A DNA stretch of 64,000 bases. Source: Candidatus Bathyarchaeota archaeon (lineage in GTDB: Archaea; Thermoproteota; Bathyarchaeia; Bathyarchaeales; Bathycorpusculaceae). The notes under the pieces were generated by a model. It was not told the origin of the DNA. It saw only the letters and a list, made by a program, of their open reading frames with translations, and did not search any database. The stretch is from positions 55,679 to 119,678 of the forward strand of contig CAWIRG010000013.1 of assembly GCA_963838505.1 (NCBI GenBank), read 5' to 3'. A program made the position numbers and the translations under genes. Positions 2,735 through 37,110 of the stretch are shown piece by piece. The stretch's first letter is position 1; each line of letters starts with the position of its first letter.

Positions 2735-2919
2735 CCATTCTATCTTTGCGCCACGCGCAACCACATGTAATGCCTGGGTTTGTTACAATTCACATTACTT
2801 TTGACGTTACAAACAAAAAGGCTGAGTCCACTCTGAACAGTAGCCCAGACTGTTTTTGTTCATGGTTTGTTACAACCCACATTACTTCTGACGTTACAAG
2901 TAAAAAAGGGGGGGTCGAC
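2735..2919 (+). repeat. composite intergenic repeat element, copy A (two 37-nt repeats 2778-2814 and 2865-2901, 50-nt spacer, G7 run + GTCGAC)
   Basis: Read directly. R1 is GTTTGTTACAATTCACATTACTTTTGACGTTACAAAC; R2 is GTTTGTTACAACCCACATTACTTCTGACGTTACAAGT. The whole ~185 bp recurs reverse-complemented at 31078-31259. Confidence 0.9.
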
Positions 2920-3600: not shown

Positions 3601-3900
3601 TCAAAAAGGAAGCGGCACAGGCATGCCGTTTCTTGCTTCCTCAACTATCGGGAGCGCTTGTCTGAGTTCTCTGAAATACTTGAGCACGGTTATGCCTCTC
3701 GGAGTTATGGCGAACACTATTCTGCTTCTTCCAACGGCCCTTTCCTCAATAAGATTTTGCTTAATCAGAAAGTCCAAGTATTCTTTCAGAACTTTGCAAT
3801 TGACATTCGCTTTATACATTATATGCGTCAGTTTTAATGGTCCACGCTGGGATAACACTTGGAGAATGTTTACATACATCTCGAGTTTGGAACGTCTCAT
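3601..3900 (-). CDS. small winged-helix DNA-binding protein (HTH_45-like)
   Basis: Internal ATG at 3900 gives 99 aa. MYVNILQVLSQRGPLKLTHIMYKANVNCKVLKEYLDFLIKQNLIEE matches the pattern of small archaeal wHTH proteins. The upstream part of ORF 3601..4032 looks non-coding. Confidence 0.65.
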   Translation of the reverse strand: MRRSKLEMYVNILQVLSQRGPLKLTHIMYKANVNCKVLKEYLDFLIKQNLIEERAVGRSRIVFAITPRGITVLKYFRELRQALPIVEEARNGMPVPLPF

Positions 3901-4189
3901 AGTTCTACCCTTCACGCATTTGCCTTCAACAGTTGGAACAAGGAGTATAAACCGTTTATGAATTAGAAACCATGGTTCAAACCCACATATTGCCACGCCA
4001 ACACAAGTCTCCGTCGCATCTTTGCAACACATTTCTGTTCATATCGAACCCCTAGACAACCTGAACTTGGGATAGTTATTACAAATATGTATTCCAAAAC
4101 CGTATCTTAACAGCACATGCCAGTAAATGCCCACGACACAGAAACTCTTCTCAGGAATAAGCAACAGACGAACAGTACTACCCGCTCAG

Positions 4190-4350
4190 CGCGCTCTCTC
4201 TCCATGGTTTGTTACCACACAACATTACCACGGTTGTTACCAACAAGCAGGCGGGACGACTCCAAAGAAGGAGATTTCACTTGATTTCTCCATGGTTTGT
4301 TACAGCACAACATTACCACGGTTGTTACCAGCCAAAGATAGGGGGTCGAC
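4190..4350 (+). repeat. composite intergenic repeat element, copy B (two 38-nt repeats 4207-4244 and 4295-4332, 50-nt spacer, G5 run + GTCGAC)
   Basis: Read directly. R1 is GTTTGTTACCACACAACATTACCACGGTTGTTACCAAC; R2 is GTTTGTTACAGCACAACATTACCACGGTTGTTACCAGC. Same architecture as copies A and C but a different sequence. Confidence 0.85.
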
Positions 4351-4443
4351 TCTGAAAAGTAACATGTCTATCCTGAACCAAGCGCTTCAACGCACGTTTA
4401 TAAGCTGGGCAGAAGCTCACATTATTGTCTAGGGTAAGAGTCG

Positions 4444-5696: not shown

Positions 5697-6009
5697 AAAT
5701 TATCTAAATGAACCTGCAGCTTGCAGCCACAAACGCGCGAAAACCTGTTTGTAAAAAGAAAACGCGCGCGAAGGCCGTTCAGATTAAGAAGCAGACGCAC
5801 GCATGCGCTGAAGGTCTTGAACCCCTTGCCTATCAGTCACAAGTTCACCAAGCTTTTTCTCAAGCTGAATGCGGCGTATCTTAGAGTTTCAAGCAGTTGG
5901 AAAAAAATGTTGCCGCGACAAAACGCAACACAAATTCTCTCGTTTGTCGTCTTTTCCCTCCCGAAACGCACTTATCTGTTTGCGTCGCTCATACAAGCAA
6001 GGCAGAATC

Positions 6010-6933
6010 ATGATGACGGAGATAATAGAATGCGTACCTAACTTCAGCACTTCAGATCCCGAGACAGTGCAAGCTATCCTCAATGAACTCAAAGAAACCA
6101 AGAAGACATTCCTACTGGACTATTCTTTCGATGACTACTACAACAGGCTCGTTGTCTCTTTCATAGGTAACAAGAAATCCGTCTTGGAAGCAGCGTCAAA
6201 AATGGCTTCCAAGGCTGTAGAACTGATTGACATGAGAAAACACAAAGGGCAACACCCCCGCATCGGAGCTGTTGATGTTGTCCCCTTCATACCGCTAAAG
6301 GACGCCACATTAGATGATTGCATAAAACTCTCCATGAAATTCGGCCAATATCTAGCCGAAAGATGCCGTGTCCCCGTTTACCTGTACGGTGCTGCCTCAA
6401 AAAAACCTGAACGAAAAGATCTAGACTGGATACGGGAAGGTGACTACGAAAAACTGCCTGAAATGATTGTCAAGCCTGAACGCAAGCCCGACTATGGAAC
6501 GCCAAAGCCTCATCCCACGGCAGGCGCCACCATAACAGGCACACGCAAAATCATGGCCGGTTTCAATGTTAACATAGGAACAGCAGACTTGAAAACCGCA
6601 AAGAAAATCGCGAAGGCCCTACACGCAAGCAAAGGCGGCTTTTCCAACGTCAAAGCAATGGCTGCCTACTTGCCCGAGAAAAACATTGCACAGATCGGCA
6701 TGAGCATAAGCGACTTCGAAAAAACTCCACTTTACCGCGTTTATGAAACACTAAAGATCGAGTGCGAACGTTACAACATCCCAATAATCAGTTCTGAATT
6801 CTGCGGCATGGCTCCGCTAAAGGCCCTAATCGACACGGTGCGATACTACCTCAAAGTTGAAAATCTGCCTGAGGAACGCATCTTGGAAATAGCCGTACGA
6901 GATGCCATTGAAAAAGGCGGTGCTTTTGAGTAA
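6010..6933 (+). CDS. ftcD: glutamate formimidoyltransferase (FT domain only)
   Basis: MMTEIIECVPNFS at the N-terminus and HPRIGAVDVVPFIP are hallmarks of the formiminotransferase domain. 307 aa from the ATG at 6010. Confidence 0.85.
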   Translation: MMTEIIECVPNFSTSDPETVQAILNELKETKKTFLLDYSFDDYYNRLVVSFIGNKKSVLEAASKMASKAVELIDMRKHKGQHPRIGAVDVVPFIPLKDATLDDCIKLSMKFGQYLAERCRVPVYLYGAASKKPERKDLDWIREGDYEKLPEMIVKPERKPDYGTPKPHPTAGATITGTRKIMAGFNVNIGTADLKTAKKIAKALHASKGGFSNVKAMAAYLPEKNIAQIGMSISDFEKTPLYRVYETLKIECERYNIPIISSEFCGMAPLKALIDTVRYYLKVENLPEERILEIAVRDAIEKGGAFE

Positions 6934-8251
6934 AGCTGCCAAAGCAAAGGCAAGAGAAAAACTAGACTTGCTCATCGTCAACGCAAATGAACTCATCACG
7001 CTTTCCGACGACACCCAAAAACCACGCAGAGGAAAGCAGATGCAGGAGATTGGAATAGTACGGGACGGCTGCTTAGCGATCAAGGATGGAAAAATCCTTG
7101 CTGCTGGAAAAACCGCTGAAGTCACAAAGGCTTTCAAAGCTGAAAACGTGATAAGCGCAAACGGCAAGATTGTTCTACCCGGTTTTGTCGACCCCCATAC
7201 ACATCTGGTTTTCGCCGGCTCACGAGAGGACGAGTTTCAAATGCGCGTCGCAGGCACTCCCTACATGGAAATCCTCAAAGCTGGCGGAGGCATATTGAGG
7301 ACAGTCCGAGAAACGAGAAAGGCTAGCTTCGAAAAACTCGTCGAAAATGGCACGAAGACGTTGGATTCAATGCTGGAACACGGAACCACGACGGTTGAAG
7401 CAAAAAGCGGCTATGGCCTGACCACAAAAGACGAGCTGAAGATATTGCAGGTCATTCAACGCCTAAACCAACTGCACACAATCGACATTGTCCCAACCTT
7501 TCTAGGCGCACATGCTATCCCGCCAGAATTCTCTAACAGCCCACGAGACTACGTCAACTTGGTCATCGAAGAAATGATCCCAAAAGTGACCGAGAAGGGA
7601 CTCGCAGAGTTCTGCGACGTGTTCTGCGAAAGAGGAATATTCAACCTTGAACAGTCAAGACGCATCTTAACAGCAGGAAAGAACTCAGGCCTGAAACCCA
7701 AGGTTCACGCAGACGAGATGAGCTGCCTAGGCGGAGCAGAACTCGCAGCCAGCATAGAAGCAGCATCTGCAGATCACATGCTTTTCTCTTCCGAAGAAGG
7801 CATCAAAGCCATGGCTGACAAAAATGTCATAGCTAACCTACTTCCCGCAGCAGCATTCAGCCTCATGAATAACCGATATGCAGACGCTCGAGCGATGATA
7901 AATCTCGGCGCCTCAATAGCTCTTGGAACCGACTTCAACCCAAACTGCTGGGCTGAAAACCAGCAGCTAATAATTGCGCTTGCTTGTCACTTCATGAGGA
8001 TGACACCAGCTGAAGCAATAACTGCAACGACCATCAATGCCGCCTACGCCGTAGGCAGAGGAAAAGAAGTGGGCAGCCTAGAACCTGGAAAGAAGGCTGA
8101 TGCTGTCATATTGGACGTGCCCAATCACAAGTTTCTTGGCTACCGATTTGGTGTGAACCTCGTTGACAAAGTGATAAAGAACGGAAGAGTCGTGATCGAC
8201 ACAGAAGCAAGTCGAAACGAGTATCGGATTCTAGAAGAGCAGAAGATGTAG
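6902..8251 (+). CDS. hutI: imidazolonepropionase
   Basis: PGFVDPHTHLVFAG, KSGYGL, HADE and GTDFNP amidohydrolase motifs typical of HutI. The exact start is uncertain; the ORF overlaps the ftcD end by 32 nt. Confidence 0.9.
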   Translation: MPLKKAVLLSKAAKAKAREKLDLLIVNANELITLSDDTQKPRRGKQMQEIGIVRDGCLAIKDGKILAAGKTAEVTKAFKAENVISANGKIVLPGFVDPHTHLVFAGSREDEFQMRVAGTPYMEILKAGGGILRTVRETRKASFEKLVENGTKTLDSMLEHGTTTVEAKSGYGLTTKDELKILQVIQRLNQLHTIDIVPTFLGAHAIPPEFSNSPRDYVNLVIEEMIPKVTEKGLAEFCDVFCERGIFNLEQSRRILTAGKNSGLKPKVHADEMSCLGGAELAASIEAASADHMLFSSEEGIKAMADKNVIANLLPAAAFSLMNNRYADARAMINLGASIALGTDFNPNCWAENQQLIIALACHFMRMTPAEAITATTINAAYAVGRGKEVGSLEPGKKADAVILDVPNHKFLGYRFGVNLVDKVIKNGRVVIDTEASRNEYRILEEQKM

Positions 8252-8331
8252 GAAATAGACTTGCCGTGTCCTGAACATTTGATGGTATTTGGGCAAAGAA
8301 TTAAAGTGTGTTTTCTCATTCTTGATTCAGG

Positions 8332-10002
8332 GTGGAAAAACTATTGGTTGAGCTGGAAAAGCCTGTTCACTTGCTGAGAGGGAAAAAACTGCATTGCAAG
8401 AACTGGCAAATTGAGGGCATTCTGCGGATGCTCTGTAACGTTGTCGACCCGGAAGTAGCGAAGGACCCTGAAAAGCTCATCGTATATGGAGGAACTGGAA
8501 AGGCCTGTCGGAATTGGGAATGTTTTGACCAAATTGTTGAAACATTGATAGAGTTAGAGCCTGACGAAACAATGCTCATTCAAAGTGGAAAACCCGTGGT
8601 CGTTTTCACGACTCACACGTGGGCCCCAAGAGCATTGATCGTTAATTCAATGCTCGTGCCAAAATGGGCAACGTGGGACTACTTCTACGAGTTGGAACAG
8701 AAGGGACTGATAATGTATGGACAGATGACAGCAGGATCGTGGGCATACATAGGAACGCAGGGCATTCTTCAGGGAACGTACGAGACAATGGCTGCTGTTG
8801 CGAAGGAGCACTTCGGCGGCAGCCTTCGCGGAAGGCTCGTTCTCACCGCGGGTCTCGGCGAAATGGGAGGCGCACAGCCTCTGGCTGTAACCATGAACGA
8901 CGGTGTAGCTTTAGTCGTGGAAGTTGATAAACGAGCGATTGAGCGCAGGATCAAACACAATTACTTAGAAACATGGACTGACAGCCTGGAAGAAGCTTTG
9001 AGGCTAGCTCTGGACGCTAAGCAAAGGCAAGTTCCAAGAAGTATCGGTCTGCTTGGCAACGCCGCTGATGTTTACCCGGAACTTCTAAAGAGAGGCATAA
9101 TCCCTGACGTTCTGACTGACCAGACCAGCGCACATGACCCCCTGAATGGCTATTACCCTGCAGGCATCAGCAAAGAAGAAGCGGACGACCTTAGAGAGAG
9201 CGATCCAAAAGAATACTGCAGACGTGCCAACGAGAGCATGCGCTTGCAGGTTGAAACGATGGTCAAGATGATGCACAAGGGAGCTGAAACGTTTGATTAC
9301 GGAAACAACCTTAGAGAACAGGCCAGCAAGGCTGGCTTCAAAGAGGCCTTCGCTTACCCAGGCTTTGTCCAGCGATACGTTAGACCAATGTTCTGTGAAG
9401 GAAAGGGGCCGTTTCGCTGGGCATCCCTCGTAGGCACCGAGGACGATATTCACGAGTTGGACAGGGTCATAATGAGGGATTTTGCGTATAACAAAGAGCT
9501 GTGTCGATGGATTACCAAAGCGAGAGAACATGTCAAGTTCCAAGGCCTACCCGCAAGGGTTTGCTGGCTCGGTTTCGGCGAACGGGCAAGATTTGGAAAA
9601 ACCATCAACAGCATGGTCGCCAATGGCAGTCTCTCCGGGCCAATTTGGATCGGCAGAGACCATCTAGACGGAGGAAGCGTCGCTTCTCCCTACCGGGAGA
9701 CGGAAGGCATGAAAGATGGGAGTGACGCAATTGCTGATTGGCCTGTACTAAACGCTCTAATAAACGCCGTCGGAGGAGCCACATGGGTTAGCGTGCATCA
9801 CGGTGGAGGAGTCGGAATTGGGTACAGCATACACGCGGGAATGTGCTTGGTGGCCGATGGAACCAAAGAAATGGAACGTCGAATAGAAACGGTCTTAACG
9901 ACAGATCCTGGAATGGCAGTAGTAAGACACGCAGACGCTGGCTACAAGAAGGCCCAGCAAATTGCAAAAGATGAACACATCAAAATGCCAATGCTAAGAT
10001 AA
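8332..10002 (+). CDS. hutU: urocanate hydratase
   Basis: 556 aa, GTG start. [15 protein letters not shown]-site motif and full-length urocanase-like sequence ([20 protein letters not shown]). Confidence 0.95.
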
Positions 10003-30671: not shown

Positions 30672-31077
30672 AGGAAGCTGTCACGTCCTGCCTCTGTTAA
30701 TCTTGACGCTCCGTTCTAAACCTTTCCATAACATATCTCGAAGTGGCAACTCCGTTGTAACGTCTTGGAGGCTCAGAACGTAGCGCCCATGCGTGTTCCT
30801 AAAATGGTCAAAAATGGCTATGATTCCGTTTTGCACATTTCTGCCAGTGCTCAAGACAGTTACTCGAAGAAATCAAGAACAGATACGAAACGCAAAACCT
30901 TCCTTGAATCAGGGAAGACGAATAAAAACCATTTTAGGCCAATTTCGGAATAGGCATGTGCACCGCTAATTCAAGTATGCTGAAACCCCTTTTGCATAAT
31001 AGCCCAGCAAAGTAGACCCGCCTTTTTTATTTTACATTTTTTGTAATGTTGAATTGTAAGATTTGATGTTGCGTTGG

Positions 31078-31259
31078 CGACCCCCCTTTTTCACTTGTAA
31101 CGTCAGAAGTAATGTGGGTTGTAACAAACCATGAACAAAAACAGTCCGGGCTACTGTTCAGAGTGGACTCAGCCTTTTTGTTTGTAACGTCAAAAGTAAT
31201 GTGAATTGTAACAAACCCAAGAATTACATGTGGTTGCCCGTGGCACAAAGACAGAATGG
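31078..31259 (-). repeat. composite intergenic repeat element, copy C (reverse complement of copy A; repeats at 31180-31216 and 31093-31129)
   Basis: The reverse complement matches 2735-2919. Both 37-nt repeats are identical to those of copy A, and I count about 8 differences, all outside the repeats. Confidence 0.9.
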
Positions 31260-31720
31260 TCAGGTCGGGCAGGCCTACCTTGGAGTTACCGTCTACGTTG
31301 CGCGCTAGCCTGTTTCTAGATTTCTTTTCTTGGGTCGAGTAGGGTTGAGTTGCGGATGTTTCTTCAAAAGGTTGTGTCATGAAGAAAGAAGGATAATTCT
31401 TTGCAAACGAATTTAGGGTCAGGCATGCGCGCGTTGTGGCGTGCCATGGATCTGCGGAGCGCATATGACTCTCTTTTATGCGCCCGTAGTGCCTACAAAT
31501 ATCTTTTATGGGTATCGGGGTTCTGTATGGTTGTCGGTTGATGTGAATCATTGCAAACTGTCGATTGCGTATGCGGCAAGGCTTAGGTACATAAGTGTCA
31601 CTTTGGAGATGAATTATCCTGATAAGCGTTGGAGACGGTGGTGCAGTAGTTCGAGGCTACTGAAGCCATATGTCGTCGAGCCAGCTACAGATTGAATGGG
31701 GGGGTTGGAGACCTGTGCTA

Positions 31721-36576: not shown

Positions 36577-37110
36577 CCTTCAAACTTCGTTGTCTTCCCG
36601 TTGCAACAGGTTAAAACCTCGCAACCAAGTATTTGTTTAGTCCCATCCGGCTTCTTCAGAAGGAACCGCTAGAATGCATAACGCGTGCTATTATGCCTTG
36701 AAGGACAAGGTTCCGGTTCACTGTCGTGGCCAAGAGAGCTTTTGGCGCGCTAGGCTGTTGCTAAATCGAATCGTTCGTGTCAATTTCCAAGTAGCGTTTG
36801 GGCATGATGGCGTTTTCTTGGCACTCTTACGTGCTAGGTCATGGTGTTTGTCCAAGCCTTAGAATGGCAGAGCAAGTTTATGTGAATCCCGCGAATTTAG
36901 CAACACGCTGGCGCGCATGTTAATCGGCATGGATTGGCAGGCGACGAACGTTGTACAAGAGATCTGAATGGAGACCAGTACGCGGTGTGCACTGCAGCGC
37001 AGTGCGGGTTCAAACCTTCTGGCAATAGCATAACACTCGTCATCAGCCGACAGTCTAATTGGGGGAGAATATTAAAGAATGGGCAGAGCATATCATAAAG
37101 GCAATTTGAC

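Follow-up and report, generated by a model that had tools for sequence, protein, structure and literature searches.

The BOX elements of Streptococcus pneumoniae are organized as boxA-(boxB)n-boxC, with a boxB module of 45 nt, and are predicted to form stable RNA or DNA stem-loops. Short directly repeated motifs also serve as operators for OmpR/PhoB-family winged-helix regulators, as in the TGTWAH-N5-TGTWAH sites of WalR. In Porphyromonas gingivalis, the BrickBuilt element has been described as a MITE composed of a leader, a minisatellite and a tail, with small inverted ends and an always intergenic, species-specific distribution (PMC4596501). Archaeal oriC regions present inverted ORBs flanking an AT-rich unwinding element that adjoins orc1/cdc6 (PMC4010727), and TIGR arrays are made of continuous ~36-nt units with alternating 8-12-nt edge and loop repeats, 9-12-nt spacers and an adjoining Nop-domain tas gene (PMC12045711). 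The Bathyarchaeia are an abundant group with almost no cultured members, and hardly any of their non-coding genome has been charted. Here we characterize a modular repeat family in this lineage for which a literature search returned no published description.

The analysis centred on a 64,000-nt stretch of DNA from a Candidatus Bathyarchaeota archaeon, here termed the window, which corresponds to ordinary chromosome. Pfam scans of 30 ORFs identified genes encoding a CDGSH protein, a thioredoxin, an Sso10a-like HTH_45 protein, a molybdopterin oxidoreductase, PolB and RsmB, together with agmatinase, Cgi121, Sua5, Clp1, topoisomerase VI, thermosome, enolase, mevalonate-pathway enzymes and GluRS. 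An Lrp/AsnC-like protein is encoded at 1168-1971 on the - strand. Three arrays of the repeat, designated A, B and C, were located in this sequence.

Array A (2778-2922, + strand) comprises two units. The 124-nt segment at 2778-2901 contains their two 37-nt repeats, at 2778-2814 and 2865-2901, in which RTTAC starts on the + strand at positions 2782, 2794 and 2806 and at 2869, 2881 and 2893, respectively, with successive spacings of 12, 12, 63, 12 and 12 nt. The original prediction was that each repeat of 37-38 nt consists of three RTTAC sub-repeats, giving six sites per element, and this triplication is both real and conserved. None of 20,000 dinucleotide-preserving shuffles of the segment reached six RTTAC instances, the maximum being four, and three instances were attained in only 14 of 20,000 such shuffles of a single 37-nt repeat. 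At the scale of the window, RTTAC-N7/8-RTTAC-N7/8-RTTAC occurs six times, as opposed to zero times in 200 whole-window shuffles. The six-site observation hence stands, since the periodicity is enriched over shuffled controls.

The first repeat of array A is followed at 2815-2864 by an A-run, a GGCTGAGTCCACTCTGAAC box, an AACAGT/ACTGTT hairpin (2836-2853), a T-run and CATGG, and the second by a box at 2902-2922 encompassing A6, G7 and GTCGAC (2914-2919). Upstream of the array, a conserved leader (2728-2777, + strand) with the pattern CCATTCT.TCTTTG.GCCACG.GCAAC... can be aligned with those of related loci (L075c, L081, L097 and L117c; related loci are designated by L and a number). The element is delimited by a GC-rich 5' boundary, GCGCCCGC, at 2700-2707, where relatives present GCGCGC(GC), and by a GC-rich 3' boundary, GGGCGGGCG, at 2935-2943, which is its inverted complement.

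Array B (about 4207-4355, + strand) also comprises two units and lies directly 3' of a AGCGCGCT palindrome (4188-4195). The sub-repeats initially quoted for it map to its 38-nt repeats at 4207-4244 and 4295-4332, the first of which contains TTACCA at 4211, 4224 and 4236. This repeat is followed at 4245-4294 by a degenerate purine box, a GGAGA...TCTCC hairpin and CATGG, and the second by the box AGGGGGTCGACTCTGAA at 4333-4356, with GTCGAC at 4345-4350. Just downstream of array B, a putative histidine-utilisation cluster spans 5869-10002, with formiminotransferase-like, imidazolonepropionase-like and urocanase-like ORFs, as judged from their translations alone.

The third array, C, lies on the - strand (31216-31007) and comprises three units. 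Its leader (31217-31305) has a GCGCGC boundary (31300-31305) preceded by the A-rich AATCTAGAAA. The repeat of its first unit (31180-31216) is identical to that of unit 1 of array A, and is followed by a second repeat at 31093-31129 and by a terminal-type unit at 31007-31064 that reads TTACAATTCAACATTACA-AAAAA-TGTAA and continues with an A-run and GGCGGG. The array is followed by a conserved tail, GGGCTATTATGCAAAAGGGGTTTCAGCATACTTGAATTAGCGG (30945-31006), common to L075c, L081 and L117c. Elements A and C share 95% identity over 186 nt (2728-2913 versus 31081-31266), and their flanks have diverged.

The arrangement had been construed as two clusters of three sites flanking a 50-bp core. The clusters are genuine, but the core is not neutral sequence: it begins, directly after each repeat, with a conserved A-run, G-run and GTCGAC(TCTGAA) box, and ends in a small variable hairpin, a T-run and CATGG. 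Because this interval carries conserved boxes of its own, the true repeat is a tandem module of 87 nt in A and 88 nt in B. Nor is the two-repeat layout general, as arrays hold from one to seven units. The complete architecture encompasses a leader of ~60 nt, one to seven tandem units of 87/88 nt and a tail of ~50 nt. In each unit, a 37/38-nt block containing three RTTAC(A/C)A motifs at intervals of 12-13 nt is followed by an A-run, a G-run, a GTCGAC palindrome and ~25 nt of fast-evolving sequence.

All units within an array are co-oriented, and the element is strongly strand-asymmetric, with a purine (A/G) tract and a run of four to six T at unit ends. Repeats within an array differ by 5-16%. 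The leader and tail are common to A-type copies and are often bounded by short GC-rich inverted ends of the GCGCGC type. These complementary ends span only 6-10 nt, with GCGCGCGC on both sides or, in element A, GCGCCCGC/GCGGGCG, and are absent or unclear in L130c, B and L097. Eleven GCGCGC hexamers were found in the window, nearly all of them intergenic (including those at 214, 2615, 3426, 4189, 5233, 5764, 31300, 31427, 36745 and 36911), and three of them form the 8-bp palindrome AGCGCGCT. Related loci contain roughly one such hexamer per 1.5 kb, and a copy lies within 260 nt on the 5' side of 10 of 17 arrays. A separate 172-nt element (36745-36916), with 22-nt inverted arms GCGCGCTAGGCTGTTGCTAAAT and ATTTAGCAACACGCTGGCGCGC, is present upstream of the topoisomerase VI B gene, with a weaker look-alike at 31300-31432, between array C and Cgi121. 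The 172-nt element may represent a further repeat family of MITE-like type or a divergent promoter module pair.

A profile search recovered 44 units from 12 non-redundant Bathyarchaeia loci, in arrays of one to seven units, and a strict two-unit pattern matched six metagenome contigs. A looser motif scan of genome contigs returned, among the matches listed, mostly chance or unrelated bacterial direct-repeat sites, with true homologues in Bathyarchaeia MAGs; true homologous arrays were likewise confined to the Bathyarchaeia among the matches listed. Five IMG/VR matches were considered as possible viral relatives and turned out to be coding repeats in tail-fibre-like genes. In all, ~270 kb of Bathyarchaeia DNA was examined, with one to three arrays per related locus and several per locus of 8-21 kb; the family appears frequent, at roughly one array per 10-20 kb in positive genomes.

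The information profile of 43 non-identical units from the 12 loci revealed that the middle CA(A)CATTAC is nearly invariant, followed in conservation by the first TTAC and the third RTTAC, and that the linkers are variable. The invariant (G/A)TTAC core originally proposed, with its period of 12-13 nt, is therefore upheld as regards the conservation of the cores, but the canonical direct triplet is present in only 24 of the 44 units. In the last unit of many arrays the third motif is inverted, yielding CATTACA-N5-TGTAA followed by A6-8 and G5-8. Type A units present TTAC-AA, ATTAC-(T/A)T and RTTAC-AA with a spacing of 12+12, and type B units present TTAC-CA three times with a spacing of 13+12. 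Between the two types, one flanking position changes in concert in each of the three sub-repeats (TTAC-AA versus TTAC-CA), which fits a recognition motif that is read three times. Very diverged arrays (L124, L127 and L130) still retain CAACATTACA and the A/G box.

The arrays are small, non-coding and strictly intergenic, with 17 of 17 located between ORFs in convergent, divergent and tandem gene contexts. Their neighbours are PolB, RsmB, agmatinase, aIF1A, EF-2, thioredoxin and similar housekeeping genes. At L137, a tRNA-Asn(GUU)-like sequence, recognized by eye at ~2400-2480 on the - strand, lies ~100 nt beyond a four-unit array and is convergent with it. Array C and its orthologues lie in the region that precedes agmatinase, farther from the gene than a conserved promoter-like GGAAAGGTTTAGAAC box. 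In the window, the string GGAAAGGTTTAGAAC(C/G)GAGCG.CAAGATAAACAG is found at ~30700-30730, ~45-60 nt before the agmatinase start, and this string is kept upstream of agmatinase in every Bathyarchaeia locus, with or without arrays (L117, L124, L127, L130, L134-L136). It is likely to represent a BRE/TATA promoter and 5' UTR.

Comparison of syntenic sites outlined the turnover of the element. At the agmatinase site the number of units ranges from about seven (L124) through six (L117), three (window) and one (L130) to none (L131, L134, L135 and L136). Upstream of agmatinase, L124 (2600-9500) and L135 (1100-9400) carry a variable island with integrase fragments and dockerin, CARDB/NosD, acetyltransferase and SLFN/AlbA genes, which places the arrays at a synteny break-point. 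A block of ~430 nt with an A-type element is inserted between RsmB and PolB in L075, L117 and L130 and is missing from the window, L124 and L134; its diverged flanks leave the junctions and any target-site duplication undefined. A clean 65-nt unit indel, with GGGGGTC at its bounds, distinguishes L075 from L117, and the two copies found in a single MAG (L075c and L081) share ~290 nt, from GCGCGC to GCGCGC, with sharp boundaries. At L144, the copy at the syntenic site upstream of the HTH_45 gene has decayed and its cores are mutated. Copies of the element thus spread to new intergenic sites, homogenise one another, gain and lose whole units as G-boxes recombine with one another, and decay. Since the arrays adjoin core genes at synteny break-points, they may shape gene expression and rearrangement in the Bathyarchaeia.

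Two readings that involve mobile elements were discarded. A 28-kb mobile element with A and C as its inverted ends is incompatible with the interior, which is a syntenic block of housekeeping genes. A link to IS200/IS605 elements, which target TTAC, was not supported; the sole IS200-type TnpA seen (L138) has unrelated CCCCGG hairpin ends. No cognate transposase or autonomous element with matching ends was found in the ~270 kb of Bathyarchaeia DNA.

Taken together, these features lead us to favour, tentatively, the reading that the segment at 2778-2901 represents the core of a single copy of a dispersed, non-coding modular repeat that is specific to the Bathyarchaeia, and that its RTTAC triplets serve as DNA-protein recognition sites. 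The case for protein recognition follows from the invariance of the cores at a fixed spacing with free linkers, from the concerted A/B change and from the adjacent palindromic boxes. According to this proposal, the RTTAC(A/C)A triplets would constitute phased DNA recognition sites for a sequence-specific protein binding head to tail, and the palindromic boxes (GTCGAC, CATG and GCGCGC) would provide further recognition sites. The putative partner could be a winged-helix factor of the host or the enzyme (recombinase or transposase) responsible for propagating the element, and the RTTAC(A/C)A triplet and A/G-GTCGAC box offer a defined short motif that can be used in the search for it. Several features speak against this reading: the 12-13-bp period is not helical, and the element is strongly strand-asymmetric, with a purine tract, T-runs and co-oriented units. 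The description of the repeats as DNA-level iterons hence survives in part: the architecture is iteron-like, the triplication is conserved and no RNA fold is, but on the best reading the element is neither an iteron replicon nor a centromere.

The first alternative, which we regard as possible though unlikely, is that each array encodes a repetitive, unstructured non-coding RNA whose promoter lies upstream of the leader, with RUUAC triplets and purine tracts acting as protein-binding or processing signals at the RNA level, either in a sponge or in a precursor cut into ~87-nt units. The co-orientation of all units, the conserved leader and tail and the strand asymmetry, with its A/G tract and T4-6 runs at unit ends that resemble archaeal terminators, are in line with this view. 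In addition, C, L075c, L117c and L130c have an A-rich, TATA-like box that precedes the GCGCGC boundary, ~10-25 nt upstream of the leader, and the block between PolB and RsmB has an A-rich region of its own upstream and is inserted between two other promoters. These boxes, together with the strand asymmetry and the T-runs, make sense-strand transcription plausible. However, A has a degenerate form of the TATA-like box and B has it in a different position, and the AATTTAG...GCGCGC string also forms the arms of inverted-repeat elements, for which reason it may be a terminal repeat and not a promoter. Furthermore, the internal T-runs would stop transcription within the array, the spacer segments lack antisense targets in the ~270 kb, and copies are decayed or missing in sister genomes.

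The absence of a consensus fold on both strands also weighs against an RNA product. RNAalifold returned 0.0 kcal/mol on the + strand and -0.23 on the - strand for 16 two-unit sequences, and -23 kcal/mol over 305 columns for five long elements, with a covariation term that amounts to a penalty of +3.07. Single-sequence folds yielded z-scores of -0.2 to -0.5 on both strands, and no Rfam family was matched. These values accord with the original prediction, which had argued against a conserved RNA stem. Its supporting observation, that the outer GTTTGT/ACAAAC hairpin possible in A is lost in B, is less clear-cut: B keeps five of the six pairs, and a few double changes are seen, but the signal of the stem is only marginal, with 78.6% of cells paired and a covariation of 0.141 versus 0.107 that was reached by 19 of 500 shuffles.

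Specific RNA and coding readings were also examined and rejected. A C/D-box sRNA was represented by a partial snoRNA match only (E=0.44), with no C box and no CUGA in the B type. A terminal 5'/3' GCGCGC helix of a ~300-nt RNA is lost in L130c, GCGCGC being a common intergenic palindrome. On the - strand, genes for small peptides such as MNKNSLGYCSEWTQPFCL and MEKSSEISFFGVVPPACW, of 18 aa each, lose their ATG or frame or acquire stops in L075, L097, L113 and L114. On the + strand, the frame of a repeat-peptide ORF (VTIHITSDVTNK) is broken by the 12- versus 13-nt spacing and by the 88-nt period, and no protein sharing words with this peptide was found in a database of 5.8 billion sequences.

A second alternative holds that the arrays lack a sequence-specific partner and are a selfish repeat or neutral minisatellite, and that the RTTAC periodicity is the trace of an old internal triplication kept visible by gene conversion. 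Lineage restriction, polymorphism in presence/absence and in unit number, concerted evolution within arrays and between A and C, and the mutated cores of the decayed L144 copy would all be expected under such a scenario. It has difficulty, however, in accommodating cores that remain invariant as linkers diverge across arrays differing at about a third of their positions, the alteration of the same flanking position in all three sub-repeats between types A and B, and the retention of CAACATTACA and the A/G box in the very diverged arrays of L124, L127 and L130. On balance, we deem neutrality rather unlikely.

A more speculative reading, to which we assign a low probability, is that the arrays act as platforms, dispersed along the chromosome, for the loading of a conserved DNA-binding protein of the Bathyarchaeia, with the Sso10a-like HTH_45 protein as a candidate, or as tandem small RNA precursors of a new class. 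Loading platforms of this kind would be an archaeal counterpart of the multi-site parS-, matS- or NBS-type sequences that organize chromosomes, with A and B as specificity variants. Arrays flank the HTH_45 gene in the window and at L144; at L137 and L140-L143 they do not. This association amounts to at most one evolutionary event, which makes it a lead and not evidence. The HTH_45 winged-helix protein itself, encoded at 3601-4032 on the - strand, presents weak similarity to Sso10a-2 (PDB 4hw0, E=0.0095). It has 3,358 homologues and is extremely conserved in the Bathyarchaeia, with the top 120 at or above 76% identity; the homologues are elsewhere figured as more than 3,000 at or above 78% identity. 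Its long ORF probably starts at an internal Met, yielding ~98 aa.

The original prediction likened the two clusters to a plasmid-type centromere or an iteron-controlled origin or operator, a model that extends to a chromosomal ORB cluster. The analogy draws on the clustering of direct repeats, on a terminal-unit dyad with A-run and G-run that loosely recalls the ORB plus 'G-string' layout (PMC4010727), and on a minimum of the cumulative GC skew near 24-26 kb. This analogy was not sustained, and we consider it very improbable. No orc1/cdc6, rep or par genes were found among the 30 window ORFs covered by Pfam scans or in the gene tables of related loci, the units are direct repeats with a local GC content of 0.40-0.47, and there is no AT-rich unwinding element between inverted sites. 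Furthermore, at least three arrays occur in 64 kb and several in related loci of 8-21 kb, whereas an origin or centromere of this type would occupy one locus per replicon, and the dispersed copies vary in unit number, are absent from syntenic loci of sister genomes, where they are dispensable, and show no similarity to plasmids or phages. The periods of 12-13 bp within the repeat and 87-88 bp between repeats are not whole numbers of helical turns, and thus lack the phasing of such systems. The cumulative skew drops to this minimum and climbs again beyond it, and most genes lie on the - strand at 10-20 kb and on the + strand at 33-60 kb. The pattern is origin-like, but neither an orc1/cdc6 gene nor an AT-rich unwinding region was found.

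The least credible reading is that of a guide-RNA array, either degenerate or orphaned, of the CRISPR mini-array, CreA-like or TIGR type, which is suggested by the 37-nt repeat with GTTTG...CAAAC ends, the 50-nt intervals, the leader, the degenerate last repeat and B sub-repeats that read UGUUACCA, with a UG start and a CCA end like TIGR box D and box C, but is contradicted by 'spacers' that carry a conserved box and are homologous between units, arrays and genomes, by repeats that diverge by 5-16% within one array, by linkers of 4-8 nt between cores in place of 9-12-nt spacers, and by the absence of any many-repeat locus among the matches listed. As a CRISPR array the element was rejected on its conserved, mutually homologous spacers, which are not unique, and gene tables and Pfam scans of the loci, the latter covering part of the small ORFs, revealed no cas genes. 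As a TIGR array it was rejected on the 4-8-nt linkers, the 50 nt between blocks and the lack of a Nop-domain neighbour, no Nop-domain tas gene adjoining any array. For annotation, the resemblance to mini-CRISPRs or iteron origins calls for caution, as does the fact that the arrays yield spurious ORFs.

Returning to the preferred reading of a dispersed modular repeat with protein recognition sites, its relationship to known systems can be outlined as follows. Like CRISPR arrays, the elements present a comparable repeat length and spacing, a leader and a degenerate terminal repeat. With iterons and R1 parC-type centromeres they share clusters of short direct repeats that a single protein would read repeatedly, but these systems are helically phased (about 11 or 22 bp), occupy one locus per replicon and adjoin rep or par genes. 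On the - strand the motif reads TGTAAC-N7-GTAAT-N7-TGTAAC, which can be likened to OmpR/PhoB operators; the arrays differ from these in their 12-13-bp period, in having three sites and extra boxes, in their tandem, dispersed units and in the lack of a linked response-regulator gene.

Sites resembling such operators were observed among the bacterial matches. Twelve Lacrimispora/Paenibacillaceae loci (L003, L004, L015, L023, L034, L040, L065, L077, L101, L102, L108 and L109) carry a conserved TGTAAC-N5-TGTAAT-N5-TGTAAC with an 11-bp period, located upstream of one gene, with a -10-like box before it and the ribosome-binding site after it, and runs of RTTAC with an 11-bp period were seen in other Clostridia and Bacteroidota loci. 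These 11-bp bacterial RTTAC/TGTAAC sites have the appearance of direct-repeat operators of the OmpR/WalR type and are unrelated to the archaeal family.

The pneumococcal BOX element resembles the arrays in being modular, dispersed and intergenic, with a variable number of middle modules and partly complementary ends, but BOX folds into predicted stem-loops and the family described here has no conserved fold. BrickBuilt likewise occurs in many dispersed copies with a variable repeat number in one lineage (PMC4596501). Its unit, however, is 23 nt long with no internal sub-structure, whereas the unit here spans 87-88 nt and contains three phased RTTAC motifs, an A/G-tract and GTCGAC, and its host is the bacterium Porphyromonas gingivalis, whereas the host here is an archaeon. 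The MITE definition applies to the family only in part, given its short ends and that no target-site duplication or transposase was found, and by analogy the closest described architectures would be the BrickBuilt MITE with its internal minisatellite and the pneumococcal BOX.
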